Assembly (NCBI GenBank): GCA_030765235.1
Contig: JAVCCW010000030.1
Coordinates: 8,144 to 72,143 of the forward strand
Direction of reading: 5' to 3'
Source: Candidatus Gorgyraea atricola
GTDB taxonomy: Bacteria; Omnitrophota; Gorgyraeia; Gorgyraeales; Gorgyraeaceae
DNA length: 64,000 nt
Positions 42,282 through 61,676 of the stretch are shown here, piece by piece. Within the stretch, counting starts at the first letter, position 1; each line of letters begins with the position of its first letter. The notes under the pieces are model-generated. The model was not told the origin of the DNA and ran no database searches. It saw only the letters and a program-made list of their open reading frames with translations. The position numbers were made by a program, and so were the translations under genes.

Positions 42282-43775
42282 CTATTTCTGTATACGGAAA
42301 TTTTCTATATGCATTTCTGGCTCAGCTATCACTACAATCCTGGTCCTGCACTGGGATTCGAGCTTGGTTATGGATGGTCTATCCTCATTCAGAAGATAAT
42401 TCGCCACATTAGGATGCACATACACGCGAATCTCCTTTATGCGAACACGCTCCACTTCCTTCCTTATTGCCCTTAGTGCCTCTATTGCCATTGTGGTAGC
42501 TGACTTTACTGCGCCACGACCTTTACAATACGGGCACTTCTGATATGATACTCTCCTCACGCCCCTACGTATGCGCTGCCTGGTGATCTGCACTATGCCA
42601 AACTCGGACATCCTGAGTATCTTGATCCTTGCCTTGTCCCTCTTGAAACATGTGACCAATATATTAAATATCTCACGGCTGTGCCTGTCCCTCATCATGT
42701 CAATAAAATCTATTATTACTATGCCGCCAATGTCCCTCAGCCGTATCTGCCTGGCGATCTCCACTGCTGCCTCAGAGTTAACTTTAAAGGCTGTGTCTTC
42801 CATGTTCTTTCTGCTAAAAGAACCGCTATTTACATCTATAGCAATAAGCCCTTCTGTCTCTTCTATGAAAATATATCCGCCACACTTAATCGGCACCTTT
42901 TTTCCGTAAAGCCTTTCTATCTCCTTCTCTATGCCACGTGAATCAAAAAGACTCGTCTTCTCCCTGTAAAGCATGAGTTTTCTCTTCATGCTCGGCATGA
43001 TATTATTCGCGAAATGCCGCAATTTATTATATTCTTCCTTGCTGTCAACAAGAACCCTGCTTACGTCCTCGCTAAAGGTATCGCGCAGGATCCTGAATGT
43101 AAGGCCATGCTCTTCATGCACAAGGCCAGGCGGTTTGACCCGGGTAGCATCGCGCTTTATGTTTTTCCAGAGCGCGGCCAAATATTTCACCTCGCGACTG
43201 AAATCATTCTCAGACTTACCAACTCCTGCCGTCCGCACAATAAGTCCCATCTTATAGGCAGGTGCTATCTTTTTCAGGATCTTGTGCAGCCTCTGGCGCT
43301 CTGCCCGATCAACAACCTTTTTAGAAACACCTATATGATGGTCAAAAGGCATCAGCACAACAAACCTGCCAGGTATGCCTATGTGTGTCGTAAGCCGCGG
43401 CCCCTTATTTCCTATGGGCTCTTTTCCCACCTGCACCAGGACATCCTGTTTTTCCCTTACAAGCCTGTTTATATCTGACGGCTTTGGTCTGGGTATTTTT
43501 CTTGGCGCGTGCTTACCCTCTTCATCCAGCACATCGAACTCCCGAGTCGAAGAAAGCATATCAGAAACATACAAAAATCCATTCTTTGACTGCCCTATGT
43601 CCACAAACGCAGCGCCTATACCAGAAACGACTGAATTAACGACTCCCCTGTAAATATTCCCTACCATGGTCACTTCAGACGGCCTCTCTATAAAATACTC
43701 CTGCAGGACCCCGCCCTCTACGACCGCTACTCTTTTTTCCTGCGATTCAACATTGATTAAAATCTCTTTCTGCAC
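42282..43775 (-). CDS. rng: ribonuclease G/E family (Rng/CafA-like)
   Basis: N-terminal S1 domain, RNase E/G catalytic core, ~497 aa without the RNase E scaffold tail. Confidence 0.8.
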   Translation of the reverse strand: MQKEILINVESQEKRVAVVEGGVLQEYFIERPSEVTMVGNIYRGVVNSVVSGIGAAFVDIGQSKNGFLYVSDMLSSTREFDVLDEEGKHAPRKIPRPKPSDINRLVREKQDVLVQVGKEPIGNKGPRLTTHIGIPGRFVVLMPFDHHIGVSKKVVDRAERQRLHKILKKIAPAYKMGLIVRTAGVGKSENDFSREVKYLAALWKNIKRDATRVKPPGLVHEEHGLTFRILRDTFSEDVSRVLVDSKEEYNKLRHFANNIMPSMKRKLMLYREKTSLFDSRGIEKEIERLYGKKVPIKCGGYIFIEETEGLIAIDVNSGSFSRKNMEDTAFKVNSEAAVEIARQIRLRDIGGIVIIDFIDMMRDRHSREIFNILVTCFKRDKARIKILRMSEFGIVQITRQRIRRGVRRVSYQKCPYCKGRGAVKSATTMAIEALRAIRKEVERVRIKEIRVYVHPNVANYLLNEDRPSITKLESQCRTRIVVIAEPEMHIENFRIQK

Positions 43776-44056
43776 TCTACTATCCTCACTTCCTCAGGTA
43801 ATTTTCCATTGATCCTATTCATAAATTCGTCCGGTTCGATCCATTTATCTAAAGAAAAACCCGCCTTTTCGCTTTCGCTTTCAACACCCAACTTTAACGC
43901 CTGCCCAAAACTTATTTTATAATGAGGGGAAAAACCCTGACTCAGGCTAACCGGAAGAGAGGCCCTTCTCACAGATCTCTGAAAAAGCCTTACAATGTCC
44001 AGGTGGGAAATATACCTTAGATCGCCTCTTTTGCAGAACGTCGCCTCTAACTTCAT
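43757..44056 (-). CDS. DUF2344 (TIGR03936-like) protein, unusually short
   Basis: RYISHLDIVRLFQRSVRRASLPVSLSQGFSPHYKISF matches the DUF2344 N-terminus. Only 99 aa; overlaps the rng start. Confidence 0.55.
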   Translation of the reverse strand: MKLEATFCKRGDLRYISHLDIVRLFQRSVRRASLPVSLSQGFSPHYKISFGQALKLGVESESEKAGFSLDKWIEPDEFMNRINGKLPEEVRIVECRKRF

Positions 44057-45459
44057 TTAGTTACTGCGACCGCAGTGCTGGAATCAGGATTGACTATGTT
44101 AACTGTTATAAAAAATAAAAGGTCAGTAGTATCGACCTCTTTTTCTTTTTTCTTAAACAATAAACTCAATATAGGTATATCCCCCAGGATCGGAATCTTG
44201 TACACCCTGTCTATTATCTGCTCTCTTATAAGTCCTCCTACAACTATTGTATCTCCATCTTTTACCATGACCTGTGTTGAGGCCTTGCGCGTAGAAAATC
44301 TCGGGGCCTGAATACTTCCTGAGCCACTTGTAAAGGTATCCCATGTTATAAAAGACGATACCTCTGGTTCCATGTTAACAACGATATAACCCGCTGGATT
44401 TATCTGAGGCGTAACTGAAAGAGTAATACCCAGTTCTTTCTCGTCATACCCAGTGACTTCTATCCTGCCTGTAGAATCGTCACGTTCATAAGTCGGTATG
44501 CTAAATGTAGTCGCAACCACTATCCTTGCTTCCTGATTATCCAAGGTCGTTATCCTTGGGTTTGAGATTATCTTTGTGTTTGCCCTGGACTTCAATACCT
44601 CGAGCACTGCCTGAAAAGAGGCAAAACTAAGTGTGCCAAAAGTATAATTACTTGGCAAGGCCAAAGGAAAAGCAGACGCAGGATTATTCACAAATGTTCC
44701 AACGTTTGTGCCTGCCTCTGCGCTAGAATCTCCGTCAGGATAAAAATGGCCCCCGTAGTCTCCAGTATGCCACGGCGCTGTTATGGGCCGCGATGCCCCG
44801 CTCGCGCTTATCTGTGATGTCCATCTAATGCCGAGCTTGTCGTCTTTATCAAGTGTTGTCTCTATGATCTTGGCCTCTATGTTCACCTGTTGTGTGCGCT
44901 TGTCGATCTTTTCTATGACCTGCTTGATCTTGTATATATTCGTAGGGATGTCTGTCACTATTACCAGGTTTGCTCGTTCATCAAACTTCACGCTCCCCCT
45001 GTCGCTCAGCATCTCTTCTATTACTGCTGGCACATCCCCTGCGTTTGCATAATTAAGCGAGAATACCTCTGTCGCGAGCTCTTCCTTTGCCAGGTTTTCT
45101 GTCGTAGTAACTCGAATAATATTCCCCTCTCGCTCGTATGTATAGCCGTAAGTCCTGAGTATGACATCCAATGCCTTTTCCCACGGCACATCTGTCAGCC
45201 TTATAGTCACAGGCCCTGTAACATCCTTGCCAGCAACAATGTTTATGCCGCTCTTATAGGAAAGTATCCTGAGTACATTTGTGATGTCAGCGTCTTTAAA
45301 ATCCAGGGTCACATTGCCGGGCAATGTACTCACCTCACCAGCAGCTAACATACCTGTCTGCGGCGGCGTCTCGGCCTGTTCAGCATCTTCTGCAAAAACC
45401 AGCCCTGTAATTCCAAAAAATAAAACGACAAAAATAACAAGACATTTTAATTCTTTCAT
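44053..45459 (-). CDS. pilQ: type IV pilus secretin
   Basis: Signal peptide, secretin/TonB short N-domain (ITNVLRILSYKSGINIVAG), C-terminal secretin (GGLIREQ...IPILGDIPILSLLF). Confidence 0.8.
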   Translation of the reverse strand: MKELKCLVIFVVLFFGITGLVFAEDAEQAETPPQTGMLAAGEVSTLPGNVTLDFKDADITNVLRILSYKSGINIVAGKDVTGPVTIRLTDVPWEKALDVILRTYGYTYEREGNIIRVTTTENLAKEELATEVFSLNYANAGDVPAVIEEMLSDRGSVKFDERANLVIVTDIPTNIYKIKQVIEKIDKRTQQVNIEAKIIETTLDKDDKLGIRWTSQISASGASRPITAPWHTGDYGGHFYPDGDSSAEAGTNVGTFVNNPASAFPLALPSNYTFGTLSFASFQAVLEVLKSRANTKIISNPRITTLDNQEARIVVATTFSIPTYERDDSTGRIEVTGYDEKELGITLSVTPQINPAGYIVVNMEPEVSSFITWDTFTSGSGSIQAPRFSTRKASTQVMVKDGDTIVVGGLIREQIIDRVYKIPILGDIPILSLLFKKKEKEVDTTDLLFFITVNIVNPDSSTAVAVTK

Positions 45460-45473
45460 ATCTCTCTCCTTTT

Positions 45474-45806
45474 TTAGTCGGTGACTAGCTCTACCCTTAC
45501 CTCGTCACCTTCTACTTCAAAGACCACAGCGCCTTTTTCTATTTTTAAAACCTTTACAATGCCTATTTTCTGACCTTCCTCAGCGATCTCTCCGTTTATA
45601 ATAGCGATGGAACCATTTGCCTCATCCCAGACTATTCCTTCCAATCTGATATCCTTTATGCTGGTTATCCCGTATGCGTCAGAGACATACATGCCGTCTT
45701 TTGAAATAAGCGGAATAAACGGATCCCTCTTAGCCTTAATATCATACTTAAACCCTGATATCAACAATATAGCAATGAAACAAAAAATGATGTATGTTTT
45801 TTTCAT
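45474..45806 (-). CDS. pilP: PilP-like pilus assembly lipoprotein
   Basis: Small signal-peptide protein placed between pilO and pilQ; assigned by position. Confidence 0.45.
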   Translation of the reverse strand: MKKTYIIFCFIAILLISGFKYDIKAKRDPFIPLISKDGMYVSDAYGITSIKDIRLEGIVWDEANGSIAIINGEIAEEGQKIGIVKVLKIEKGAVVFEVEGDEVRVELVTD

Positions 45807-46360
45807 AGTGTCTTTGTAATATATGTACTGACCCTTAACCTTATGTCATGACGCCTGGGATCTTCAGACCTACCCTTTATGTCCACATCGTCTATCCTTA
45901 TGAACGTAGTCATGCTTTCAAGATTGTTCACAAATACGCCGCACTGATGATAACCTCCTCTTGCCTCTATCAAAATCGGGAACTCAGAATAAAGCCCGCC
46001 TGCCTGAGAAATATTGTCCAGCGTCTCAAGGGGCTTGATCCTGAGTATCTTTACGCCCGAAGACTCCGCTACGCTGGAAAAATCCTCGAGCAGGACAGCT
46101 ATCTCATCATGGCCAGCCAGCTGCTGCTCGGAAAGCCTCACCTGCTTGCTTAACTCATCATGTTGTTTTTTTATCCTGGCCTCATTTGTAATCAAATTCT
46201 CAGAGTTTCTTACTCTGACCCTTACTGCGCAGTACTCCCTGTTATTCGCGATAAAACTTCTAAACTGCGGTTTCAGTAGAAGATTAAAATAAATCACAAG
46301 CGCTGCAATTCCAAAAATCCCAAAAAGTATATATAGTTTTTGTTTTTCTTTAAGCTCCAT
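45803..46360 (-). CDS. pilO: type IV pilus assembly protein PilO
   Basis: Single N-terminal TM plus coiled-coil, position after pilN. Confidence 0.55.
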   Translation of the reverse strand: MELKEKQKLYILFGIFGIAALVIYFNLLLKPQFRSFIANNREYCAVRVRVRNSENLITNEARIKKQHDELSKQVRLSEQQLAGHDEIAVLLEDFSSVAESSGVKILRIKPLETLDNISQAGGLYSEFPILIEARGGYHQCGVFVNNLESMTTFIRIDDVDIKGRSEDPRRHDIRLRVSTYITKTL

Positions 46361-46374: not shown

Positions 46375-46953
46375 TTATTTAAGATACAACACGATCCTGA
46401 AATCCACTATGTCCCTCTCATCTATGCTTTTTCTCTGCACAGATTCGAGCTTGATGTTACTGAAATCTTTAAAGAATGTCTTATTATCGCGTACATTTTT
46501 CATGAACTTGCCTACTGTTGCCATAGCCTCTTCCTGCTTAGGTATCACACTGCCCTCTACTACCAGCTTATCTTCTGAATCTGTCCGGATCCTCGTAAAC
46601 CAGATCCCCGGCAGAATCAGATCAGAAAGATAGTTCAGCTTCTCTGCCCATAAAAATCTGCGGCTGGTGACCCCATCCATCATGTTCATCTTTGCCTTTA
46701 GGGTGACTATCTCTTTATTGATCGTCTCTATGTCTAATGTCTCTGCTGCAAAATTTTGCTCCTTAAGAAGCAGCCTCTGCGTCTGCTTCTTTCTGACGAA
46801 AGAGCCCACCAGACAAAACAGAACGAGTATTATTAATATGCCTGCAGCTGCAGCGCCTCCTATGACCTTGACTTTTTCCATCTCAAGGTCCAGCTTAAAC
46901 TGCGGCTGCCTTTTCTTACGCATCTCCTCCGGCAATAAATTTATCTCTATCAT
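46375..46953 (-). CDS. pilN: type IV pilus assembly protein PilN
   Basis: MIEINLLPEE start typical of PilN, single TM, ~190 aa. Confidence 0.6.
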   Translation of the reverse strand: MIEINLLPEEMRKKRQPQFKLDLEMEKVKVIGGAAAAGILIILVLFCLVGSFVRKKQTQRLLLKEQNFAAETLDIETINKEIVTLKAKMNMMDGVTSRRFLWAEKLNYLSDLILPGIWFTRIRTDSEDKLVVEGSVIPKQEEAMATVGKFMKNVRDNKTFFKDFSNIKLESVQRKSIDERDIVDFRIVLYLK

Positions 46954-46954: not shown

Positions 46955-47926
46955 TCACTGCCTCAGCGCCAGGCCGATTGCTACTGCAAATAAGGCCGGC
47001 GATCCTTCTGGCTCGCTAACAGGACCCGCTAATGAAACAGCCTCAAACGGATCCCACATCACTACAGGTAAGCCTAAATTATCTTTAAGAAAATCCAGCA
47101 TATTAAAGAGATACGAAGTCCCGCCGCTTATGTAGACCTTTTCAACGCCCCTGCCGAACTGACTTTCAAAATAATCAAAAGACATCCGCATCTGCGACGA
47201 GAGCCTTTCAAGCACAGGATTAATAACGCTTATCACTTCTTCCCTTTTCTCAGCAGGGTTCTTCTTTAATGCCTCCGCGTCTTCCAGGCTGAGCGCCATT
47301 GCATCCCTGATCCTTTTTGTAATATCTGCGCCGCCCCACAATATATCCCTTGTAAAATATACATTTCCCTTTGTTACGATATTCATATTGGAAAAACGCT
47401 CACCCATATTGATAAGACCGTATGCCGCGTCTTCCTTTTTCTCTGCCGCTGCATGGAAACAATTTAAAAATGCAAAACTGTCTACGTCTATAGTGCCTAT
47501 CTCGAGTCCAAAATTTTTAAAAAGCTCTATCAGTCTATCCACTTCCGGCTTCTTTGCCGCGACCAGCAAAACCCTTTGACTCCCGGAACTCGTCTTGTCA
47601 AGCACCGCACAATCTATTATGGACTGATCTATGTCAAATGGTATATACTTCCCTGCCTCGAACTTTATTGCGCTTTCTATCTCTTCTTTTTTCATGGGCG
47701 GCATCTCGATGTAGCGCACTATCACTGACGGGCCTGCGAGTGAGACATTTACACGCTTCAAAGACAGCTTTGCCTGGCCCAGCAGTGTCTTGAGCGCTGA
47801 GGCTGGATTTCCATCAGCTACAGACGTGATGAGACACTTGGAGACTACAGGCTTGCCTTTTTTATGCTCCAGCTCCACTAACTTTACATTATATTGCCCG
47901 AGATCTATTCCAATGACTTTTTTCAC
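46955..47926 (-). CDS. pilM: type IV pilus assembly ATPase-like protein PilM
   Basis: Actin-like ATPase fold, VIGIDLGQYNVKLV start, 323 aa. Confidence 0.8.
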   Translation of the reverse strand: MKKVIGIDLGQYNVKLVELEHKKGKPVVSKCLITSVADGNPASALKTLLGQAKLSLKRVNVSLAGPSVIVRYIEMPPMKKEEIESAIKFEAGKYIPFDIDQSIIDCAVLDKTSSGSQRVLLVAAKKPEVDRLIELFKNFGLEIGTIDVDSFAFLNCFHAAAEKKEDAAYGLINMGERFSNMNIVTKGNVYFTRDILWGGADITKRIRDAMALSLEDAEALKKNPAEKREEVISVINPVLERLSSQMRMSFDYFESQFGRGVEKVYISGGTSYLFNMLDFLKDNLGLPVVMWDPFEAVSLAGPVSEPEGSPALFAVAIGLALRQ

Positions 47927-47973: not shown

Positions 47974-48417
47974 TTATTGCACTACTGGATCATTTACGCT
48001 TGCCGGACCATTAGGATTTGCTTTTATTATGCTGGACTCATCAGAAAAAAAGTATCTCGTGCCTGTTTTTCCAGCAGAAACAGGATTGGCATTCAATGTA
48101 AAGGTCTCGCTGTCAACAAGGGCATAATTAAACGTATAGCCCTGCTTTGTGCCACTGGCAAGTATAGTATCAATGTATGGCGGAATAGAAATCGGCGGAA
48201 CAAGATCCAACATGCTAGATGGATAGGCATGCGGGTAAGAACTCGCGTAAAAGTTCTGTGCCGCAGTAACAACGGTCCTGCATGAAGCCACTGCAGCCAT
48301 CTCATTCGCATTATGCCTGGCGCGCAATACGCTAGAAATAGCCAAGGTCGCAAGCGTCATAACCACTGCGACAACTATCATTATTTCAACTAGGGTAAAC
48401 CCCTGACGCCCTTTCAT
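47974..48417 (-). CDS. type IV pilin / pseudopilin (prepilin cleavage-methylation domain)
   Basis: MKGRQG|FTLVEIMIVVAVV class III signal with Glu+5. Confidence 0.75.
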   Translation of the reverse strand: MKGRQGFTLVEIMIVVAVVMTLATLAISSVLRARHNANEMAAVASCRTVVTAAQNFYASSYPHAYPSSMLDLVPPISIPPYIDTILASGTKQGYTFNYALVDSETFTLNANPVSAGKTGTRYFFSDESSIIKANPNGPASVNDPVVQ

Positions 48418-48559: not shown

Positions 48560-49006
48560 TTATTCTATCGGTACGCCAGCAGCATTAGTAAGTCTGATAA
48601 CACCGCTCTCATCCACGAAAAATACTCGCGTACCTGTTGTCCCGCTGACAGCTGGTGAAGCAGTGCATGTAAACTGGTTCGCGTTTACAAGTACATAGGC
48701 ATAAAAATACCCTTGCTTTGCATTCGCGGCCGCAGTTGCTCCTCCAAGTCCTCCATCGATGTATGCTGGAGTCGCTCCACTAAGCGCTGCTAAGTTAGCA
48801 GGATACGTGGGTGGCGTCTGCGCTGAACGGAAGCTCTCGCATGCAGTGCTAATGGTTCGGCTAGCTGCAATAGATGCTGCTTCGTTAGCGTTGTGCCTTG
48901 CTCGTAGCAAATTCGGTATGGCAATTGCTGCCAATAAAGATATGATTGCGACGACTATCATGATCTCTACGAGCGTGAAACCATGCCTTTCTCTTAATTT
49001 AAGCAT
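48560..49006 (-). CDS. pilA: type IV major pilin (PilA-like)
   Basis: MLKLRERHG|FTLVEIMIVVAII prepilin signal. Near-consensus sigma70 promoter and AAGGAGG RBS upstream, double hairpin downstream. Confidence 0.8.
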   Translation of the reverse strand: MLKLRERHGFTLVEIMIVVAIISLLAAIAIPNLLRARHNANEAASIAASRTISTACESFRSAQTPPTYPANLAALSGATPAYIDGGLGGATAAANAKQGYFYAYVLVNANQFTCTASPAVSGTTGTRVFFVDESGVIRLTNAAGVPIE

Positions 49007-49077: not shown

Positions 49078-49095
49078 CCTCCGCAACCCCGGAGG
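49078..49095 (-). terminator. short hairpin after the 1062-aa gene, upstream of the pilin promoter
   Basis: CCTCCG-CAACCC-CGGAGG; shares the GCAACCCCGGAGGTT core with 52476-52524. Confidence 0.35.
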
Positions 49096-49202
49096 TTCTT
49101 TATATATTAGACACATTTGGGAGGGTGGTTTCTTTCAAATTTTTTTGAAATATTTATAAGGAGGGTTAAAAATGTGAAATGTGTAGGCCTACTTCTAGAT
49201 AC

Positions 49203-52200
49203 CTAGATATTATGTATAAAACCTTTTGCTCTCTTGAGAATTTCGGGTATAAAAGGTACCCCGATAATAAAACTACGCATCATCTTGTTCTCAGGTTTAT
49301 TTCTAATTCTAATCATGTCGCCGTTTTTGTCTTTAATAATGTAATCTATAATATATAGGCCGCGTTTCGTTTTCTGTCCTTGATTATTTAAGCCGTTCCA
49401 TTTTAATCTATATTTACCAACACCTTTTGACAAGTTATTAAAACTTCTGACTTCTTTGCCTTCTATATTATAAATCCTTATCTCTAGGCTTTCAATAGAC
49501 TCATCTATGCTATAAGGGATAGTAGTCCTATTAGTAAACGGATTAGGGCGGTTCTGCTCAAGACTTATTGGCTGTTCAGTTGGGTCTATCTCAGCAAGGC
49601 GCCTATGGTCTTTTACTGAAGTGTCTATGGATTCTCCACCTCCTGGCTTAAAAGGATTAAGGCCTTTTTCTACAAGATTCAACCAAGAACCTGCGGCAGT
49701 ATGCTCTACACCTTCAGGAGGAACAATCCAACCATGCTTAGTGTACACAAGTCCTAATTCAGCATATAAGACTGCAAGCATATTATCTCTTTCGACAACA
49801 AGACGAGTATCAGGAGAAGTAACTATGCCATCATAAAGCTCTCCAGCCCATCGCATTAATTCTGTACGCCAAGCATCTGCATTAGCAGGATCTACATTAG
49901 GGTTCTTCCTATAATATGTCGCTGCATCCCTGCATGCAAGGATCATAAATATAGACCATTCTGCAGATCTATTATTTCGTGTATCACTATAATCAACGCC
50001 TGTTAGATTCCCATCTGCATCAAGAATACCAGCCTTATACATTGCGTTTTCTATTATCTTGAAGGTTTCGCCTGGGCCTCCTAAATTATCATCAATCCAT
50101 TTAGGGCCCTTAGACAAAGAAGCCCATAACTGGACATCTGTAGCAAAAACCTCATCCTTGGTCCATGTCTGGCTACCAATGTCAAAACTGGCACCTCGAC
50201 AAAATTCATGCTTACTCGAATCATGTGACCAGCTAAGAAACTCATCTATCCACTGTATGCCTTGTGACAATTTTATTTCCTTACCGTCATGTAAGGTTTC
50301 ATCGTATCCGCCAATAAGTTCATGATACTGCTCGTAAAAGTTAAGCATTGACTGATTATTCTCTAAAGATGCTGTATTATTAAAATGATCCATGCCAAGC
50401 CAATGATATGTACCTCTTGGCGCCATAGGAACAGGTTTTAAATCTGCACCCTGATTTTCTTTATCCTTTTGAAGTATCAATGATGCGCGCAAAATCTCTT
50501 CAGCTAATTGTGCTCGAACATCATTCTTCCAATCAATTTGATTCTTAAAGTCTGCTCCATGCTCTAACACCAGGCTCTGTAAACACATAATCCCTATCCA
50601 TGCAGCCTCACCTGCTATTGGCTGCCATTGACTCCAGGTGATATCCCTGCCTTTATATGTTATGATATACCTCTCGCTTATAAATTTAAAAGGCCATCCC
50701 CTTGTTCTTTTATTATTATTATCCTTGCCTATTACTGTGGGGTCGTTTTCGTAATAATTAAATGGATTTGCATAATCATTTGGACCGCCCCAATTACCGC
50801 GTATATTACTTAACCCGCCTGTCCTGCCTGACCAATAAACATCTGCTATTCTCTTAGTCCTTTCAATAAAGTCCTGGTCACTTTCATCCTTTCCATGTTT
50901 AGCAAGGGCCATGCCAGCTAGTGCCTGATCATAGCCTAAAATACCATGTATTAAAATCTGCAGCATATGATCGTCTACTGCTTGATCATAGATACTCTCA
51001 TTTTCGCCTGGAACATTTAATGTCTTGATAAGCCTTTGTGCCTCATCCGGGGCATCGGGCCAACCCATAATCCCTATGTACAGCTTAGCTCTTACATTCT
51101 CAATCCAGTTTATTATTCTTTCGGCATATCCCTGAACTACCGGTGGTTTGTGAAGTTCATCTATCTCTTGTACCTGCTCCCTGATTTGCTTTACCCTCGG
51201 AACTAAATATTCAGCTATTCCCGCTTGTTCCTGGTTAACCTCATCAAGAGCACCCTCAAGTGCATCCATGTCTAAATCTTTCTTTAGGCCCCAGAATGTC
51301 AACAACACCGCATCATATCCAGTTTCTCCTATATCGCTCAATACACTCTTTAATGTGTCTTTATCGCCAAACAACTTCTTTACCCTGCGCAATTCCCTGA
51401 ATCCATTTTTCAGATCACTTGTTATTTTCTTTTTAACCCTCTCTCTTGCAGGATTCGTCATGCTTTTGCGCTCTCTTCCGCATGTAAGATTACTCAAATC
51501 TATAGGAATCATATAGTACCTTGCCTTATTAAATATGGCGGTAAGCTTCCCTATGTTTTCTTTGGCAAGATTAATCTTTTGCTCCGCAGTCATGGGCTCT
51601 TGAGGAGCACTAGCTGTAAGAGTTGAAGCGGGATTAAGAGCTATTGCAGCAGTAAAAAGTCCTGTAATTTTTAAAAATGTCTTCCTATCTATTCCTGGCA
51701 TTCCAGCTGTCATTGTAAACTGGCCGCCACGGAAATAATATATCGCAATAAGGGCCTGAAGGCTCCGAAAATTGTCTTTCTTGAGAAGCTTTATTAAATC
51801 ACTATCTGAATACTCCCCTTCAGGATCTCCCATCTGTATTACAGCGCTAGTATCAAGATCATCAATTCCTTTATTTAGCTTATAAAGAATTTTTTCTATG
51901 TCATCTAGCTTGAAAACAATCTTCTGGCCCGAGAGTACTGCACTAGGTAAAGTTACGCCTTGAACAATTATCTCGTCTGTCTCTCCAGATGCTTTATGAA
52001 ACTCTAGAGGATCTGTATAAAGCAACAAAATATCCTCTCCCTTAAAACCTAAAACGAATTTTTTGCTTTTAATGCCTTTGATTGCCTGAGCCTTAGTAAT
52101 ATGCACTGTGGACTTATTTGCTAAGAGAATTGGGATCTTAGTCTCTTTTGAGTTTTCAATAGAAGCTAAAGCAGTCTCTTCATTAATAGCAATACCTTGC

Positions 52201-53739: not shown

Positions 53740-55371
53740 TTAATCCTCCGATGTAACTCTCGAAACCTCTTCCATGGTAGTGACCCCGTCTTTATATTTC
53801 TCCATCGCATCATCTCTAAGCGTCTTCATTCCTTTAGAAATAGCGTATTCCCTTATATCATCTGTCGAGGCCTTTCCTATGATCATTTCCCGCATCTTAT
53901 CATCTACGCTCAAGACTTCCAGTATAGCACACCTTCCGTAATAGCCAGTGCCTGAACACTTTTTGCAAGTTTCTTTTTTTCCTTTACAGTCTGGGCAAAT
54001 TACCCTGCATAATCTCTGCGCTGCCACCAATATCACTGACGAGGCGATCAAAAAAGGCTCGACACCCATATCCATAAGTCGGTTAACAGCTGTTGGCGCG
54101 TCATTGGTGTGGAGTGTACTCAAGACAAGCTGGCCTGTCAACGACGCCTTTATTGCTATATCAGCAGTTTCAGAATCGCGTATCTCTCCGATCATTATCA
54201 CATCAGGGCTCTGTCTTAAAAGAGACCGTAGCCCACTCGCAAAATTAAGGCCTATATCTGAATTCGCCTGCATCTGAGTTATACCCTCGACCTGATATTC
54301 CACAGGGTCTTCTATTGTTATAATATTTTTGTCCGGCGTATTTAACTGACTTATTACGGAATAGAGTGTGGTGGATTTACCGCTGCCTGTCGGACCAGTT
54401 ACCAGTATCATGCCAAAGGGTTTAGCGACTGCCTTTTCGAATCTCGTCAGGGCATATTTTGAAAAACCTAATTTATTAAGTCCTATAGAAAGACTGGATT
54501 TATCAAGCGCCCTCAATACTATCTTGCTTCCAAATGATGTAGGCAAGGCCGAGACCCTGAAATCTACTTCTTTGTTCCGTGTACGTATCTTAAACCTGCC
54601 GTCCTGAGGCGTGCGCGATTCTGTTATATCCATACCTGACATGATCTTAAGCCTTGCCAGGATCGCATTTTGATTTTTCTTGGGGATCTTAAGTACGTCA
54701 TGAAGATTGCCGTCGATCCTGTATCTGACCCGCAGATCATCTTCTTCTGGCTCAACATGAATATCTGACGCCCTTTTCTTTAATGCCTCCACAAGGATCA
54801 GATCCACCATCTTTACGATCGGAGGCGCCTCTCCCTCAAGGGCCGCATCAGTTATATCAAACTCTTCTTTTATAGCGCCTATTACTTCGACATCACCATC
54901 TTCGGCGTCTTTAATAATATCCGATAGCGTCCTTCCCTCTGAGGCGTAAAACTTATCTATTGCCTGGAATATCTCTGTCTCTGTGCTCAAGACTGGTTCT
55001 ACATTGCACTTTGTGATCATCTTTAAATCGTCTATTGCAAATATATTCAGCGGATCGACCATGGCCACAACAAGTGTTGTGGAAAATTTACATATGGCAA
55101 TTGCCCTGTATTGCCTTGCCACCTTTTCAGGTATAAGGGGAACAGACTCCTTTTCTACTTTATATTTCGAGAGATTTATGGCGGGGATACTAAAAGTGCT
55201 GCTCATGACAACCAGCAAGTCCTTTTCGCTTACCAATCCTTCCTTAAGAAGTATCTCAGGCAAACTCCCGCCTTCCCTTGCCTGCTTTTCCCTAACGCGC
55301 TTAAGGTCTTTCTCTGAGATAAGCTTGTTTTTAATCAGGACCTGACTTAATTTATAGTGTGTGGTTGCCAT
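53740..55371 (-). CDS. pilB: type IV pilus assembly ATPase PilB/GspE family (copy 1)
   Basis: T2SSE_N domain, Walker A GPTGSGKSTT, Asp/His boxes, tetracysteine CPDC...CKKC. Confidence 0.85.
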   Translation of the reverse strand: MATTHYKLSQVLIKNKLISEKDLKRVREKQAREGGSLPEILLKEGLVSEKDLLVVMSSTFSIPAINLSKYKVEKESVPLIPEKVARQYRAIAICKFSTTLVVAMVDPLNIFAIDDLKMITKCNVEPVLSTETEIFQAIDKFYASEGRTLSDIIKDAEDGDVEVIGAIKEEFDITDAALEGEAPPIVKMVDLILVEALKKRASDIHVEPEEDDLRVRYRIDGNLHDVLKIPKKNQNAILARLKIMSGMDITESRTPQDGRFKIRTRNKEVDFRVSALPTSFGSKIVLRALDKSSLSIGLNKLGFSKYALTRFEKAVAKPFGMILVTGPTGSGKSTTLYSVISQLNTPDKNIITIEDPVEYQVEGITQMQANSDIGLNFASGLRSLLRQSPDVIMIGEIRDSETADIAIKASLTGQLVLSTLHTNDAPTAVNRLMDMGVEPFLIASSVILVAAQRLCRVICPDCKGKKETCKKCSGTGYYGRCAILEVLSVDDKMREMIIGKASTDDIREYAISKGMKTLRDDAMEKYKDGVTTMEEVSRVTSED

Positions 55372-55379
55372 ATTTCGTT

Positions 55380-57095
55380 TTATTCATCCGCTACAGTAAC
55401 TCTTAATATCTCTTCTAAGCTGGTAACGCCTTCGAGCACTTTTATAAGGCCGTCTTCTCTGAGTGTCCGCATGCCTTCTTTTCTTGCCTGGTTTTTCATC
55501 TCACTTTCCCGTACATTTTTCAAAATCATATTTTTTATCGACGGGCTCATGGTCAGGATTTCGCATATGCCCAACCTTCCGCTATATCCTGTGTTAAAAC
55601 AGTGCTCGCATCCCTTTGGCCTGTAAAGAGTCGAGTTCTTTGACTTATCCTTACCAATGCGCAGGTCAGCAATAATCGCATCACTTGGCTTATAAGATTC
55701 TTTGCACTTTGGACATAACTTACGGATCAATCTTTGGGCAACTATAGATATTAAAGAGGCGCTTATAAGAAAAGGCTCTACGCCCATATTTATAAGCCTC
55801 ACTACTGAACCACACGCGGTTGTCGTGTGTAATGTTGAAAAAACAAGATGTCCCGTAAGCGCAGACTTTATAGCGATGTCCACTGTATCAAAATCCCTTA
55901 TCTCTCCTATCATTATCACATCAGGATCCTGCCTCAAGATAGAGCGCAATGAACTTGCGAACGTAAGGCCTACTTCAGTCCTTACCGTGACCTGATTCAC
56001 ACCCTGGATCTGGTACTCAACAGGATCTTCAACTGTTATAAGATTTTTCTCAGAAGAGTGGACATGTTTCAATAATGAATAAAGCGTGGTGGTCTTTCCA
56101 CTGCCTGTAGGCCCGCACACCAGTATCATTCCATGAGGATGGGACGCTGATTTTTTAAACACTGCTACATTATTTTTTTCAAAGCCGAGTTTTTCAATAT
56201 CCAGCATAGCGCTAGACTTATCCAGCACCCTGAGCGCCACCTTTTCGCCTTTAGAGGAAGGTAAGATAGAGACCCTGAAATCCACTTCATTATCCTTTAC
56301 CCTTAATTTGAAACGGCCGTCCTGAGGAAGCCTGCGCTCAGCAATATTCAGTCGAGACATGACCTTTATCCTTGAGACAATAGACTCATGCCTGCTCTTT
56401 GGCAAAGACTCTATTGTCTTAAGCACTCCGTCTACCCTGTATCGTATGCGCAGAGATTTTTCCATTGGCTCTATCAGGATGTCGCTCGATCGCGCCTTTA
56501 TACCATTTTCAAGGATCGTGTTTGTCAATCTCACAACAGGCGCCTCTTCTACTAATTTATAGAGGCGTGCGGAATCAACTTCCTCTTCAGCCTCTGCCCT
56601 GATGATCTCAAGGTCTGCAATTTTCATGTCCTCCATCAGGTCTTCTATTGCTGCATGAGAATATCCGCCATAATGCTCTGCTATTACATCCTGTACTTCT
56701 TTCTGTGACGCGATAATAGTGCCTGTCTCGAATCCTGTAAGCGAACGGATATCATCTATCGCAAATACGTTCAGGGGGTCAGCCGTTGCTATCGTAAGGA
56801 TATTTCCTACTTTAGAGACAGGGACGATCTGATATTTTTTCGCTATATCAGCTGGCACTAGCTTCAATATCTCAGGATCGATTTTAAAACGGGAGAGTGC
56901 TATGGGTGGAATGCCTAAGCCCTGACTTAAGGCTGCCATTAGATCTCTTTCGCTCGCAAATCCAAGATTAACAAGAACATCCTTTAGCAAGCCGCCCTTC
57001 TGCTTCTGGACCTTCAAGGCCTTTTTTAGCTGGGCGTCAGTGATGACCTTGTTTTTTATCAATATCTCAGTAATGCGTTCTTTGAGAGAATACAT
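55380..57095 (-). CDS. pilB: type IV pilus assembly ATPase PilB/GspE family (copy 2)
   Basis: T2SSE_N domain, Walker A GPTGSGKTTT, tetracysteine CPKC...CEHC, 571 aa. Confidence 0.85.
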   Translation of the reverse strand: MYSLKERITEILIKNKVITDAQLKKALKVQKQKGGLLKDVLVNLGFASERDLMAALSQGLGIPPIALSRFKIDPEILKLVPADIAKKYQIVPVSKVGNILTIATADPLNVFAIDDIRSLTGFETGTIIASQKEVQDVIAEHYGGYSHAAIEDLMEDMKIADLEIIRAEAEEEVDSARLYKLVEEAPVVRLTNTILENGIKARSSDILIEPMEKSLRIRYRVDGVLKTIESLPKSRHESIVSRIKVMSRLNIAERRLPQDGRFKLRVKDNEVDFRVSILPSSKGEKVALRVLDKSSAMLDIEKLGFEKNNVAVFKKSASHPHGMILVCGPTGSGKTTTLYSLLKHVHSSEKNLITVEDPVEYQIQGVNQVTVRTEVGLTFASSLRSILRQDPDVIMIGEIRDFDTVDIAIKSALTGHLVFSTLHTTTACGSVVRLINMGVEPFLISASLISIVAQRLIRKLCPKCKESYKPSDAIIADLRIGKDKSKNSTLYRPKGCEHCFNTGYSGRLGICEILTMSPSIKNMILKNVRESEMKNQARKEGMRTLREDGLIKVLEGVTSLEEILRVTVADE

Positions 57096-57097
57096 AG

Positions 57098-57535
57098 CTA
57101 TTTATAATGATTATTTATTGCGTTCTTGATATCCGTCGCTGTGCTTACAAAAATTTGGACGCACAGACCTGAAACAAGCTCTATGTCTTCTATTGCGAGA
57201 CTGTTCAAAGGGTTTGACATCGCTATTGTAAGATTATTGCCGATCTTATCCACGGGAATGAGACAAAACTGCGTAGCCACATTCTTTGGCACGATCTTAA
57301 CGATCTCAGAATCTATATCATAATTATCGAGCGGCAGGTAAGGGAATCCGTATTGCGCGGTCAAGGCCTGCGCAATAGCTTCTTCAGTCGCATATTTCAG
57401 ACCCACAAGGACTTGGCCAATGAGCCCGCCCTTTGTTTTTTGCACCTCAAGCGCATGCTGAAGCTGCTTTTTATTGATAATTCCTCTTTCAATAAGAAGC
57501 TCTCCTAATTTTTTCTTAATGATCTTTTTCGCCAT
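57098..57535 (-). CDS. stand-alone T2SSE_N / MshEN-like domain protein (putative c-di-GMP receptor)
   Basis: 145 aa carrying two tandem 24-residue MshEN-like motifs, KLGELLIERGIINKKQLQHALEVQ and LIGQVLVGLKYATEEAIAQALTAQ. Confidence 0.65.
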   Translation of the reverse strand: MAKKIIKKKLGELLIERGIINKKQLQHALEVQKTKGGLIGQVLVGLKYATEEAIAQALTAQYGFPYLPLDNYDIDSEIVKIVPKNVATQFCLIPVDKIGNNLTIAMSNPLNSLAIEDIELVSGLCVQIFVSTATDIKNAINNHYK

Positions 57536-58636
57536 TTATGTCTTCTCTTTAAACATCCTCTCTAAATCCTGCACCTCAGTGGTCCTGCCCAGCGCGTCTT
57601 CCTTTGTAATCTGTCCTTGTACAAAAAGATCAAAGAGTGACTGGTTCATTGTCTGCATACCTTCTCTCTGAGCAGTCTGCATAGTAGAATAAACCTGATG
57701 CGCTTTTGATTCCCTGATCTGACTCCGCACCGCAGCGCTGTTCACAAGAACCTCTACTGCCAGCACCCTGTCCTTTCCGGATCGGCTTGGTATCAGCTGC
57801 TGCGACAAAACACCCATCATCACAAACGAGAGCTGTGCCCTGACCTGGGGCTGCTGCCTCGCAGGAAAAACATCGATGATACGATTTATTGTCTGTACGC
57901 TATCTGATGTGTGCAGTGTCGCTAAAACCAGATGGCCTGTCTCTGCAATAGTCAATGCTGCCTCTACTGTCTCGAGATCTCTCATTTCCCCTATCAAGAT
58001 GACATCAGGATCTTCTCTCAGAACATGCTTGAGCGCTTTTGCAAAAGTAAGCGTATCGCTGCCGACCTCTCTTTGGTCTATTATTGACTTCTTATTAGTA
58101 TGTACATACTCTATGGGGTCTTCAACCGTAATTATATGACAATCCTTGCGGCTATTGATCCAGTCTACCATCGAGGCCAGCGTCGTTGATTTTCCACTGC
58201 CAGTAGCGCCTGTAACAAGCACAAGCCCTTTGGGCTTTTCGCAGAAGCCCTCCATTACATTTATTGGCAGGCCGCATTCTTCAAAACTCCGTATCTTAAA
58301 AGGCAATGCCCTGATAGCAGCGCCAACGTATCCCCTCTGCCAAAACACATTGACCCTGAATCTGCCAAATTCTTCTTTAGTAAACGCGAAATCCAACTCT
58401 CTGTCTCTTTCAAAGTGCGCCTTCTGCTCATTGGTAAGAATAGAATATATTAAATCCTTTGACGAATTCTCAGTCAATTCCTTCTCGCTAAGCGCCACAA
58501 GGCCCCCATGCACTCTTAGATGCGGGACAGACCCGACTCCCAAATGTAGATCCGATGCATTCTGTTTTACCATCTCCTTCAGTAATTGATTTAGATCTAT
58601 TGCCATGCAATTCTCCTTTCGATATTCACACCACAA
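57536..58636 (-). CDS. pilT: twitching-motility retraction ATPase
   Basis: GLVLVTGATGSGKSTT Walker A, PilT AIRALPF-like and GEMRD motifs; ~356 aa from MAIDLNQLL. Confidence 0.85.
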   Translation of the reverse strand: MWCEYRKENCMAIDLNQLLKEMVKQNASDLHLGVGSVPHLRVHGGLVALSEKELTENSSKDLIYSILTNEQKAHFERDRELDFAFTKEEFGRFRVNVFWQRGYVGAAIRALPFKIRSFEECGLPINVMEGFCEKPKGLVLVTGATGSGKSTTLASMVDWINSRKDCHIITVEDPIEYVHTNKKSIIDQREVGSDTLTFAKALKHVLREDPDVILIGEMRDLETVEAALTIAETGHLVLATLHTSDSVQTINRIIDVFPARQQPQVRAQLSFVMMGVLSQQLIPSRSGKDRVLAVEVLVNSAAVRSQIRESKAHQVYSTMQTAQREGMQTMNQSLFDLFVQGQITKEDALGRTTEVQDLERMFKEKT

Positions 58637-60038
58637 CCCTGTTTTTACCTAATGATTTCGCGCTCTTAATAAGCTCCTCTGCCTTTTTCATAAGCTCATC
58701 TGCGCTTGAACCATCTATGGGATTCTCGCTCACGGCTATACTTACAGTCAGTTTCCCGCTGATCTCCATAAGTTTTGCAAGTCCAGATTCTACTTTTTTC
58801 TTTATCTCCTCTGCAACGTTTGCAACTTGTTTTTTATTTTTCTCAGGAACAATTATTGCAAACCTGTCTGTGGACAGGCGGCCGACTTTATCTACCGCTG
58901 TCACGCTGCTATTGAGCATCTCACCTAAACATTTTAGCAGAGTCTCTGCTTTTGATTCGCCAAAGCGCTCGTTAAAATCTTTAAAATTATCAATATCTAC
59001 GAGCAGATAACCGCATGGCCTCTGGTAAAGACACGCCCTTTTTATTTCTTCGTCAAGCCTTGCATGTATAAAACCTTCGTTGTAAAGTCCTGTTAATTCA
59101 TCCTTTACTGCGAGCTCCTTTGCTTTCTTTACCAGGATATCGTTCTCAACGGCTATTGTAACCTGTTTAACAAATATCCTCAGAAGCTCCTTTTCGTCTT
59201 CTTTGAACAGAAAATCCTCTTTTGCATTGCCTAACACGAGCATGCCGTAAGGCCTTCTGGAAATAACTATTGGAAGGATAGCAATGTTTTTCAAACCAAG
59301 CGAGGCGATAATCTTATTCGCTGCTATACTCCTAGGCTTCGAAGCCTTATCTATAATAAGCATATCTGTAACAAGATCACCTCTCTTAAGCACTAATTCA
59401 CTCACTCTCTTTTTTTCAATATTTGACTGTGAAAATACCCCGGGTTCTCCTGAAACGCTGTCCGGCAGCATAATAAACGAGCAAGAACCGTTCCCGAGCT
59501 CTGATATCTTTTGCGATATAAAATCAAGGATCCTTAGAAGATCCGTTGAAGAAGATATGAGATTGCCTACCTGCAAAAGCCCTGAAAGCGCAAGTACCTT
59601 CTTATTTATCTCCATATTGATCAACTTTGTCTTTTCACCATAGTTCTTCAGCTCTTCTATGTTATCCTTGATCTTCTGCGTCATAATATTTAAAGACATT
59701 GATAGCTCACCGATCTCGTCCTCGCGATCCACCTTGATCACTCTCTCCATGTCTCCTTCTGCGATTCCCCTTGCGTCAACCGCCATCTGGACCACAGGAT
59801 CTATCATCTGCTTTGTCGTATACAGCCCAAGAAGGGATATAATAATAGATATAACCAATATTAGACTTATATTGCCCAGTGAGAGACCAAGAAATAAAGC
59901 AATGTTAGGAAAGATGTAAGTCGTAACAAGCCATACGCATATCAAAAGCGGTATAAGCGACATCAGAGAAAAGGCGATCATCGTCTTGTACTTCAAACCT
60001 TTAGGAACCAGGGACATCTTTTTCAAGAAATTAATCAT
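58626..60038 (-). CDS. membrane protein with HAMP, GAF and a degenerate GGDEF domain
   Basis: Two N-terminal TM segments; HAMP-like IMTQKIKDNIEEL; GGDEF fold (LTGLYNEGF...DIDNFKDFNERFGESKAETLL) but the signature reads GRLSTDRF instead of GGDEF/GGEEF. Confidence 0.65.
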   Translation of the reverse strand: MINFLKKMSLVPKGLKYKTMIAFSLMSLIPLLICVWLVTTYIFPNIALFLGLSLGNISLILVISIIISLLGLYTTKQMIDPVVQMAVDARGIAEGDMERVIKVDREDEIGELSMSLNIMTQKIKDNIEELKNYGEKTKLINMEINKKVLALSGLLQVGNLISSSTDLLRILDFISQKISELGNGSCSFIMLPDSVSGEPGVFSQSNIEKKRVSELVLKRGDLVTDMLIIDKASKPRSIAANKIIASLGLKNIAILPIVISRRPYGMLVLGNAKEDFLFKEDEKELLRIFVKQVTIAVENDILVKKAKELAVKDELTGLYNEGFIHARLDEEIKRACLYQRPCGYLLVDIDNFKDFNERFGESKAETLLKCLGEMLNSSVTAVDKVGRLSTDRFAIIVPEKNKKQVANVAEEIKKKVESGLAKLMEISGKLTVSIAVSENPIDGSSADELMKKAEELIKSAKSLGKNRVVV

Positions 60039-60092
60039 ATTAACCTCCGTTTATCTTCATTTACTTTAGTATACATTACAACTCATCTAACT

Positions 60093-61676
60093 TCAAGCAA
60101 CAATAAAGCTCCAGGGAAACTTAGTATCTCTGTTTTTAGTCAGGTACGGATCTGGATTAATTCCAGATTCTTCAAAGCATTGCAGCCAGAGATCGTAGTT
60201 AAAATGCTCTGTCCATGCCTGAAGTCTGGCACCCTTTTGCCAGGCCATTTGTATAACCTGGCCTACTTTCCTGTCTCCCCTGGATAAAATCGCTTCGATC
60301 CTGCTCATGCGAAGATCATGAAAATCCATTCTTATTTTTGTCTTTGAACGTAAATATTCTCTTTTATTTTTCAACACTTCTATATCTTCCATGCCTTCTC
60401 TTTCAAATTCCGAATGCGGCTTTGGTATAAATGGAGAGATGCTCAGGTTGACTCTTTTTATGCTCGAGGCAAGCTCTATGATCGCGTCTAAATCCTCTTC
60501 TCTTTCACCTGGCAGCCCTATCATAAAATAAAGTTTGACCTTTTTCCATCCTGATTTAAGCGCGATCTCAGATCTCTGTATTATATCTTTATTTTCAATA
60601 TCCTTGTTCAAAAGTTTCCTTAATCGATCACTGCCGGATTCTGGCGCGAATGTCAATCCAGCCCTTTTCACAACACCACCTGCCTTGCCAGCATCAAAAC
60701 TTTTGACCCTAAGAGAGGGTAAGGATATCTTTATGCCCAGCGGTTTAAACTTCTCCCCTAACTTTCCAACAAGTTCCTCGAGATATGGATAATTTCCGCT
60801 GGAAAGAGATAAAAGTGAGATCTCTTCATACCCTGTGCTTTTTATTGACTCTTCTGCTATTTCCAAAATCCTTTTTACTGAGCGTATGCGAAGAGGTTGA
60901 AATATTTTACACGCCTGACAAAACCTGCAGCGGTGTGGACATCCACGCATGATCTCAATACTGATCCTATCATGCACGATCTGAAGATACGGGACGATCG
61001 GATCTGTAGGAAAATACGCGCTGTCGAGATCCCCTATGATGCGCTTCGTGATATTTGATGCCCGATATGTTGGAACGTACACACCTTTAATCTTCGCAAG
61101 CTCTCTCAACACCTTGTCCCTTGTCCCGCCTGTCCCGAGCGAAGTCGAGGGATGTCCCTTGTCCCTAATAATGCCCGTAATCTCAAGTACCGCCTCTTCA
61201 GCCTCGCCGATCACAAACGCATCGACAAAGTCTGCCATTGGCTCAGGATTAAACGCGCATGGCCCGCCAGCTATGACCAATGGATGCTCGTCTCCTCTAT
61301 CAGCGCTACGAAGCGGGATCTCGCCGAGCTCTAAAATATTCAAGACATCCACAAAACTCATCTCGTACTGGAGAGAAAAGCCAAGTATGTCAAAATCCTT
61401 CAGCGGCCTTCTGCTTTCCAGCGACGTAAGCACAGTCCCTTCCGTTCTCATCTTTCGCTCCATGTCAACCCACGGCGAAAACACCCGCTCACAAAGAATA
61501 TCCTTTTTGCTATTCAAGAGACCGTATATTATCTTCATCCCCAAATGACTCATACCTATTTCGTATATATCAGGAAAACAAAGCGCCACCTTTAACCTGT
61601 CACTCGTCCATTCCTTATGGACAGCATTCCACTCCTTATTTATATATCTGCCTGGTTTTAAAATAGTTTTCTCCAT
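60093..61676 (-). CDS. radical SAM protein, TIGR03960-like (usual partner of DUF2344 next to rng)
   Basis: B12-like N-terminal domain, CPHRCRFCQA motif, ~527 aa; carries a palindromic-element insert. Confidence 0.75.
   Translation of the reverse strand: MEKTILKPGRYINKEWNAVHKEWTSDRLKVALCFPDIYEIGMSHLGMKIIYGLLNSKKDILCERVFSPWVDMERKMRTEGTVLTSLESRRPLKDFDILGFSLQYEMSFVDVLNILELGEIPLRSADRGDEHPLVIAGGPCAFNPEPMADFVDAFVIGEAEEAVLEITGIIRDKGHPSTSLGTGGTRDKVLRELAKIKGVYVPTYRASNITKRIIGDLDSAYFPTDPIVPYLQIVHDRISIEIMRGCPHRCRFCQACKIFQPLRIRSVKRILEIAEESIKSTGYEEISLLSLSSGNYPYLEELVGKLGEKFKPLGIKISLPSLRVKSFDAGKAGGVVKRAGLTFAPESGSDRLRKLLNKDIENKDIIQRSEIALKSGWKKVKLYFMIGLPGEREEDLDAIIELASSIKRVNLSISPFIPKPHSEFEREGMEDIEVLKNKREYLRSKTKIRMDFHDLRMSRIEAILSRGDRKVGQVIQMAWQKGARLQAWTEHFNYDLWLQCFEESGINPDPYLTKNRDTKFPWSFIVA
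61112..61165. repeat. heptamer plus CGCCTGTCCCGAGCGAAGTCGAGGGATGTCCC module, in frame in the TIGR03960 radical SAM gene
   Basis: Reads DKGHPSTSLGTGGTRDK. Confidence 0.7.

Follow-up and report, generated by a model that had tools for sequence, protein, structure and literature searches.

The type IV pilus genes of Candidatus Gorgyraea atricola, a member of the phylum Omnitrophota, are found between two genes that in other bacteria are immediate neighbours or form a single fused reading frame. The two genes encode a B12-binding-type radical SAM protein of the family TIGR03960 and a protein of the DUF2344 family (TIGR03936), and in the 64,000-nucleotide stretch of contig JAVCCW010000030.1 analysed here, which is referred to in full as the window, they lie 16,037 bp apart. 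The whole interval is co-directional on the minus strand, and in the order of transcription the block reads mrdA-rodA-radical SAM-[GGDEF-pilT-MshEN-pilB-pilB-pilC-ORF1062-two pilins-pilMNOPQ]-DUF2344-rng-rplU-rpmA-obg, with a DUF2344 protein of just 99 amino acids. A preliminary description of the window gave this order and all of its coordinates correctly, and suggested either a pilus island inserted into a conserved housekeeping pair, with possible truncation of DUF2344, or an ancestral fusion that had split. Comparison with related genomes speaks against an island: with a probability of about 0.8, the nesting represents an ancient gene order that has been passed down vertically within the Omnitrophota and the 99-residue protein is a functional short form of its family.

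The gene order was followed in two samples of loci. The first was collected with pilC as a probe and contains 80 species-level Omnitrophota loci with 10-kb flanks, annotated with the proteins of the window, whilst the second contains 80 independent metagenome loci found with a profile of the short DUF2344 protein. Wherever a border is visible in the species loci, the pilus cluster is placed between mrdA-rodA and rng-rplU-obg. The rodA gene is followed by the radical SAM gene, normally with the GGDEF gene next, in 27 of these loci and directly by the GGDEF, pilT or MshEN gene in 19. At the opposite border, the order pilQ-DUF2344-rng is present in 8 distinct loci (including L001 and L003), and pilQ-rng without DUF2344 in 10, where the gap is 139–289 bp. 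The full nesting, from the radical SAM gene through to DUF2344, is seen in L015, L018, L021 and L073, the last of which belongs to Candidatus Tantalella remota, whose radical SAM and DUF2344 proteins are respectively 42% and 48% identical to those of the window. Within the metagenome loci rng is immediately 3' of the short DUF2344 gene in 74 of 74 and pilQ immediately 5' in 65 of 71, and the most divergent short forms (L091 and L092, 44–45% identity) have the same context. The position of the pilus cluster is conserved in at least two classes of Omnitrophota. What the relatives share is this ancient order with a short, not a full-length, DUF2344.

The junction of pilQ, DUF2344 and rng is particularly compact. 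At its 5' end the DUF2344 gene shares an ATGA (4 nt) with the stop of pilQ, two codons that the preliminary description had as abutting, and at its 3' end it shares 19 nt with rng, which begins with GTG. Between the three genes there is no strong predicted terminator, with a weak 9-pair hairpin inside the 3' end of pilQ. With such tight packing, pilQ, DUF2344 and rng are most likely co-transcribed and translationally coupled. In six of the 71 metagenome loci (L121, L145, L156, L163, L169 and L170) rng is kept 3' of DUF2344 and the 5' neighbour is an open reading frame (ORF) other than pilQ, judged by eye from the N-terminal translations to be RND-pump-like (resistance-nodulation-division), epimerase-like, pilin-like or coiled-coil. 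Since these loci keep rng but not pilQ, the link of DUF2344 to rng is the tighter of the two.

The canonical form of the pair is seen outside the phylum. The 99-residue query matches 8,527 representative clusters at E ≤ 0.001, and those that are not Omnitrophota-like are mostly 205–300 residues long, with fusions of about 850–950 residues; among the best 120 matches, the named homologues are all from Omnitrophota, and one of them, a protein assigned to a metagenome-assembled genome of Candidatus Gorgyraea atricola, is 100% identical to the query. One outgroup locus (L087) has mrdA and rodA followed by a fused radical SAM::DUF2344 gene of 886 codons and then rng. A second (L089) consists of rodA, two peptidase genes, a radical SAM gene (619 aa), a DUF2344 gene (235 aa) and rng, and the one named member of the 90%-identity cluster that contains its DUF2344 is from a Thermosediminibacterales bacterium. 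In a third (L085) the radical SAM gene (631 aa) overlaps the DUF2344 gene (225 aa), and in a fourth (L090) the two are fused at a site that does not adjoin rng. The first three, in which the genes are adjacent or fused immediately 5' of rng, are examples of the canonical arrangement given in the preliminary description. The window has the same setting as the canonical pair, from rodA to rng-rplU-rpmA-obg, but here the pair is split by the 16 kb pilus cluster whereas elsewhere it is adjacent or fused upstream of rng, and the radical SAM gene is adjacent to the short DUF2344 gene in none of the 80 metagenome loci. The ancestor probably carried mrdA-rodA-radical SAM-DUF2344-rng-rplU-rpmA-obg, and a type IVa pilus cluster would then have come to sit exactly between the radical SAM and DUF2344 genes, in a layout that has been kept since.

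The radical SAM protein of the window scores 588.8 bits against TIGR03960 (cutoff 462.3) and retains an intact CxxxCxxC motif (GCPHRCRFCQ), but the match ends at position 563 of the 605 in the model. A Cys-rich tail, TPDCRxGxCxxCGxC, is found at the C-terminus of stand-alone and fused outgroup proteins (L085, P0128 and P0177) and in none of the eight Omnitrophota proteins in the alignment, all of which stop short of it, L073, L030 and L050 running on for about 20 residues more than the Gorgyraea group. On the alignment, the Omnitrophota proteins differ from canonical TIGR03960 members of the same family by the loss of this tail. As the tail adjoins the insertion point, it is a likelier casualty of the rearrangement than the missing half of DUF2344.

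Twelve of the species loci span both borders, and in these the radical SAM and DUF2344 genes are both present in four, both absent in eight and never found singly. In a neighbour-joining tree of pilC the loci with both genes are found in the Gorgyraea clade and at L073, and the loci with neither fall into two separate clades, one with L033 and L048 and the other with L080; the large L030 clade has the radical SAM gene, and the fetched sequence stops short of its DUF2344 border. Provided that the pilC and species trees agree, this distribution implies at least two joint disappearances. Both genes would then have been lost together from the locus in at least two lineages, with the pilus cluster staying between rodA and rng. 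The joint presence or joint absence of the two genes suggests that their products remain functional partners across 16 kb.

A different view of the same genes is that the short DUF2344 protein has taken on a new role as an accessory to RNase G or to the pilus-secretin operon, leaving the radical SAM protein to act alone. This is improbable, even though the invariable 3' position of rng, often with overlapping frames, and the complete lack of radical SAM adjacency speak for it, as does the loss from the radical SAM protein of the tail that leads into DUF2344 in the fusions. Against it, neither gene is ever found singly at this locus, with joint absence in two clades. Moreover, adjacency to rng is also canonical for the full-length pair in other phyla and so is not specific to the short form.

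The main reading of the preliminary description, a pilus island that inserted into the housekeeping pair and truncated it, is very improbable when taken as a recent, horizontal acquisition. The cluster certainly lies at the exact junction of two genes that other bacteria have side by side or fused, and DUF2344 covers half of its family model. Like a genomic island or integrative element, it is a multi-gene module within a conserved housekeeping block. Unlike such elements, it lacks an integrase, a tRNA target and flanking repeats, does not stand out in composition and has a conserved position. The expected break in composition across the interval was not found: the pilus genes have a GC content of 0.39–0.49, a GC content at third codon positions (GC3) of 0.39–0.54 and codon-usage distances that all fall among those of the housekeeping genes on either side, and the window-wide GC profile runs on without a step at both 44.0 kb and 60.0 kb. 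A somewhat weaker GC skew at 47–58 kb than in the flanks could be taken to favour an island, but this stretch does not coincide with the borders. Only ORF1062 is off in composition (GC 0.393; GC3 0.333, the lowest in the interval). No tRNA is found at the interval borders, the sole tRNA of the window being at 2921-2997, no direct repeats were found to bracket the interval, and family searches gave no integrase among its ORFs. Each ORF in the interval has either a pilus or signalling family match or a conserved position in the pilus assembly, with ORF1062 matching only a C-terminal sorting domain. The marks of a mobile island, that is a recombinase, bounded ends, atypical composition and a patchy distribution, are thus missing from the pilus cluster, and the same nesting is found in species whose radical SAM proteins are 42–65% identical. 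Finally, the missing C-terminal half of DUF2344 would fall on the rng side, whilst the pilus cluster adjoins the N-terminus, which is intact; hence insertion of the pilus genes cannot itself have truncated DUF2344. Of the earlier proposal, the occupation of the junction stands, but as an ancient conserved order, not a recent arrival.

The short DUF2344 protein scores above the curated cut-offs of both its family models, with 122.4 bits for PF10105 (cutoff 23.8) and 124.3 bits for TIGR03936 (cutoff 71.9). The matches are of half length, at positions 1–96 of 176 and 4–96 of 209 respectively, and the protein does not give the full-length coverage that corresponds to a two-moiety fold. A hidden Markov model made from 16 full-length homologues, when searched against the six frames of the 64-kb window, found nothing at E < 1 for the C-terminal half. 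The 99-residue length is the normal, conserved form in the recovered Omnitrophota relatives, with short ORFs of 87–124 residues in all 80 metagenome loci at 47–93% identity. In an alignment of 42 sequences, 16 columns are invariant (K9, I16-S17-H18-L19-D20, R27, R30, R31, G41, P44, A53, L54, L56, G57 and L86), and the pairwise ratio of non-synonymous to synonymous divergence (dN/dS) is 0.09–0.13 where dS can be estimated. An AlphaFold2 model of the short form has a compact β-α-β-β-α-β domain with a mean predicted local distance difference test score (pLDDT) of 93 and a predicted template modelling score (pTM) of 0.83. Purifying selection acts on the short DUF2344, which is a stable single domain and not a decaying fragment. 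To call it truncated-looking, as had been done, is accurate in that it has half of the family model, but it is not a degraded remnant.

The same observations leave very little room for the ORF to be a functionless pseudogene that is kept open by its overlaps with the pilQ stop and the rng start. Its half length, the overlaps with both neighbours and the lack of a C-terminal half anywhere in the window are all in keeping with a remnant. However, overlaps of 4 and 19 nt cannot constrain 300 nt, and a remnant would not be intact in 80 of 80 relatives, retain invariant residues that include ISHLD, R27, R30 and R31, show a dN/dS of around 0.1 or be predicted to fold confidently. An artefact in which assembly or binning joined a pilus locus to a housekeeping locus has a negligible chance of being correct since, although the window derives from a metagenome-assembled genome and many related contigs are broken shortly after pilC, the radical SAM-GGDEF and pilQ-DUF2344-rng junctions recur in many independent assemblies, including single-cell genomes and contigs of 123–833 kb.

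What the functional short form might do is suggested by its fold. Pfam assigns DUF2344 to the pseudouridine-synthase clan, in which the domain is a tandem duplication with two moieties (PMC7955657), and the two-moiety fold is thought to have arisen by this duplication. In structural alignments to TruA, the full-length protein P0124 aligns over 183 residues and the short form over 88; the match to the TruA fold is strong, yet the short DUF2344 has a single moiety. Against the TruA- and Pus1-type synthases 1vs3, 2nqp and 7r9g, it likewise represents one moiety of two, at a sequence identity of 8–16%. The short-form profile also gives a weak match (E = 0.02) to yeast Pus1 residues 143–173 (INEKLPEGIRV). 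The N- and C-terminal halves of full-length DUF2344 have no sequence likeness to each other (hhalign probability 1.4%), and for this reason the half-fold argument is based on structure and on the Pfam clan note. In comparison with canonical TIGR03936 proteins of about 205–300 residues, the short form has no C-terminal moiety, but it keeps the ISHLD, RxxRR and NxxLPxG motifs and the predicted structure of the N-terminal moiety. The 99-residue protein is exactly one complete moiety of a TruA-like fold, the N-terminal one, and it ends at the domain boundary. The question raised in the preliminary description, whether the family model would show a complete domain, has a divided answer: half of the model is there, and it makes one complete structural moiety.

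A mechanism can be tentatively proposed in which the radical SAM protein and the TruA-like DUF2344 would work together on RNA, with a link to RNase G and to the biogenesis of ribosomes. The RNA-binding platform would come from DUF2344, the short form contributing one moiety, possibly as a homodimer or docked on a partner. The odds on such an RNA-modification mechanism are somewhat below even. A more detailed version is doubtful: here the short DUF2344 would be an autonomous pseudouridine-synthase-fold moiety that rebuilds the two-moiety platform, by homodimerisation or by docking to the tail-less radical SAM protein or to RNase G, within a radical-SAM RNA-modification system that is tied to RNase G and ribosome maturation and whose genes are co-selected across 16 kb.

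Several points count against the account given so far. The direction of the history, with insertion followed by joint loss, is inferred by parsimony from four outgroup loci, one of which (L090) is not next to rng. The 12 loci that span both borders are phylogenetically clustered, so that the co-occurrence of the two genes amounts to about two or three independent events. Absence here means absence at this locus, and either gene may have relocated elsewhere in the genome; no remnants of the radical SAM or DUF2344 genes are present in the pilQ-rng and rodA-GGDEF gaps of the loci that have neither, and loss in situ is a deduction. Co-transcription of pilQ, DUF2344 and rng is predicted from the gene overlaps and from the lack of a strong terminator between them. 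When the match to Pus1 is extended without gaps, the position of the catalytic Asp falls on K55 and the loop RTDxGVH on ALKLGVES; by this weak extrapolation the catalytic Asp does not seem to be conserved, and pseudouridine-synthase activity seems unlikely. The RNA-modification mechanism has fold and gene neighbourhood as its only sources, and the literature on DUF2344, TIGR03936, TIGR03960, PF10105 and PF19864 yielded nothing functional, the sole relevant paper for DUF2344, TIGR03936 and TIGR03960 being the Pfam clan note (PMC7955657).

What looked like an island insertion becomes, on the reading of an ancient gene order, a deep remodelling of an operon, in which a pilus cluster has, across a phylum, kept apart two genes that some bacteria have as a fusion, and in which the split genes still come and go together at the locus. 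A widespread but unstudied radical-SAM family gains a functional lead, in that its partner has the fold of a TruA-like RNA enzyme and sits on RNase G. Tests of the evolution of the two-moiety pseudouridine-synthase architecture could also draw on the half-size DUF2344. For the Omnitrophota, the pilus genes form one fixed and conserved cluster beside cell-wall, RNA-processing and ribosomal genes, and not a mobile accessory module. The pilus system itself is of a known kind; the half-size DUF2344, the tail-less radical SAM protein and their persistent split are a new variant of known families.

The genes of the block, in the order of transcription, are as follows.

62900-63964, minus strand: mrdA, PBP2-like (penicillin-binding protein 2) transpeptidase; upstream anchor of the block, with a conserved place 5' of rodA both within the Omnitrophota and at outgroup L087.
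61725-62804, minus strand: rodA; conserved by tblastn in 46 species loci.
60093-61676, minus strand: TIGR03960 B12-binding-type radical SAM protein, 527 aa; also matches Radical_SAM_N2 and Radical_SAM.
58626-60038, minus strand: HAMP-GAF-GGDEF protein with a degenerate active site, RLSTDRF, from family search; position conserved in relatives.
57536-58636, minus strand: pilT, retraction ATPase; T2SSE 163.6 bits.
57098-57535, minus strand: stand-alone MshEN-domain protein, 145 aa; PF05157 62 bits, in nearly every related locus.
55380-57095, minus strand: first pilB-type assembly ATPase, MshEN plus T2SSE, from family search.
53740-55371, minus strand: second pilB-type assembly ATPase, MshEN plus T2SSE, from family search.
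52535-53737, minus strand: pilC, platform protein, from family search; followed by a perfect 22-nt inverted repeat at 52476-52524.
49203-52391, minus strand: ORF1062, 1062 aa; signal-peptide-like hydrophobic N-terminus from the translation, FlgD_ig/Por_Secre_tail C-terminus from family match.
48560-49006, minus strand: prepilin-type pilin A, from family search; promoter-like site at 49066-49038, hairpin with a 16-bp stem after the gene at 48546-48511.
47974-48417, minus strand: prepilin-type pilin B, from family search.
46955-47926, minus strand: pilM; TIGR01175 170.5 bits.
46375-46953, minus strand: pilN-like, from position and conservation; family matches weak.
45803-46360, minus strand: pilO-like; the L001 and L003 orthologues carry PF04350 PilO.
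45474-45806, minus strand: pilP-like small protein, from position; conserved in relatives, no family match.
44053-45459, minus strand: pilQ, secretin; TIGR02515 296.7 bits.
43757-44056, minus strand: short DUF2344/TIGR03936 protein, 99 aa; PF10105 and TIGR03936 profiles.
42282-43775, minus strand: rng (RNase G), GTG start, from family search; directly 3' of the short DUF2344 gene in the metagenome loci.
41925-42239, minus strand: rplU; downstream anchor, conserved in relatives.
41579-41815, minus strand: rpmA; downstream anchor, conserved in relatives.
40611-41570, minus strand: obg; downstream anchor, conserved in relatives.

The true start of pilT is probably an ATG about 10 codons within the listed ORF, and pilin A is probably the major pilin. 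The interval probably consists of several transcription units, with DUF2344 and rng read through from the pilMNOPQ unit. Strong hairpins follow rodA (61725-61691) and pilin A (48546-48511), and promoter-like sites are found upstream of pilin A and of the GGDEF gene. The hairpin between the rodA stop and the radical SAM start, at 61691-61725, is GC-rich (11 GC) with a 15-bp stem, and may be a terminator or processing site that divides the cell-wall genes from the radical SAM and pilus genes.

Genes for type IVa pili are reported to be near-universal in Omnitrophota and to be present in 38 of 40 Gorgyraia genomes (Seymour et al. 2023, PMC10066038). Searched by keyword, that paper and a 2026 complete-genome preprint on Omnitrophota gave no passage on a fixed pilus position between rodA/radical SAM and DUF2344/rng. 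As in other type IVa systems, both ATPase types (PilB and PilT), the platform protein PilC, the pilins, the alignment subcomplex PilM/N/O/P and the secretin PilQ are all encoded, with pilN, pilO and pilP recognised by position together with weak or orthologue-based matches. No match to the prepilin peptidase PilD (Peptidase_A24) came from the ORFs of the interval or from those of at least 120 aa that were scanned in the rest of the window, and the enzyme may be encoded elsewhere in the genome. The description of the system as complete therefore holds for the assembly, retraction and secretin genes but not for PilD. In contrast to other type IVa systems, the cluster has a conserved module of two PilB paralogues, a stand-alone MshEN protein and a degenerate GGDEF protein, in which RLSTDRF replaces RxGGDEF, as was recognised from the outset. 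This module of GGDEF, (pilT), MshEN and two MshEN-PilB genes (53740-60038) is conserved across the phylum (loci L005-L084). The pilT gene is missing from this position in the large clade L030-L046, and a second MshEN ORF is found just upstream of pilC in L053, L056, L069, L070 and L072. Going by its domain types, the GGDEF/MshEN module may provide a control of the pilus ATPases that is linked to cyclic di-GMP.

The pilus cluster of L092, one of the most divergent loci, is split, with fab genes upstream of pilM instead of pilB and pilC. The same locus has three extra genes between rng and rplU (10218-14101), which include one for a 747-residue protein with a weak prepilin N-methylation match.

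ORF1062 is the only part of the interval that seems to have been acquired later, and it looks like a lineage-specific insert. The 80 species loci, in which a pilin gene normally starts within some 100–350 bp after pilC, contain no homologue of it, nor does the PDB contain a sequence relative of the protein. The ORF may be a cargo gene that was inserted at the pilC-pilin junction. The perfect inverted repeat after pilC (CCCCGCAACCCCGGAGGTTGCC) has a half-copy of 95% identity downstream of ORF1062 (49078-49097), and about 14 nt (AATATGCTTAAATT) are common to ORF1062 and pilin A around their starts. A duplicated pilin leader at ORF1062 was considered and rejected, as the shared sequence is limited to the 20-nt hairpin half and the approximately 14 nt at the start codon.

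The closest relatives, L005, L011 and L012, have unrelated housekeeping genes after pilC and not pilins. In L005 (11200-17263) these are genes for a nucleotidyltransferase (NTP-transferase), a GNAT protein and proteins of the Aconitase/Aconitase_C and Iso_dh families, together with asd; in L011 (1550-11550) they include a fadB-like gene, a patatin gene and a hybrid kinase gene; and in L012 the post-pilC region (10410-16174) is likewise unrelated to pilins. A local inversion was rejected as the source of these genes, since the window holds a single short match to them (83 aa, 33%, in a histidine-kinase domain). Dozens of contigs of metagenome-assembled genomes also end within 1.5 kb after pilC, which suggests a hot spot of rearrangement or strain variation at the pilin genes. 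With the ORF1062 insert, the unrelated genes of the relatives and the contig ends all falling at this point, the pilC-pilin junction appears to be a real hot spot of change.

Elsewhere in the window, a low-GC stretch at 21988-27980, where the local GC falls to 0.32, encodes a histidine kinase with seven-transmembrane (7TM) and GAF domains (GC 0.373) and a second B12-binding radical SAM protein, with DUF4070, whose gene has a GC of 0.312, a GC3 of 0.245 and the most atypical codon use of the window. The stretch also contains a fatty-acyl reductase-like gene and a gene for an AMP-binding enzyme, with FadL encoded next to it at 28260-29570, and it may be a laterally acquired, lipid-related cluster. 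At 17283-17735, a 150-residue ORF has a match confined to the C-terminal end of CstA (profile positions 440–558 of 560) and looks like the truncated remnant of a carbon-starvation transporter gene.

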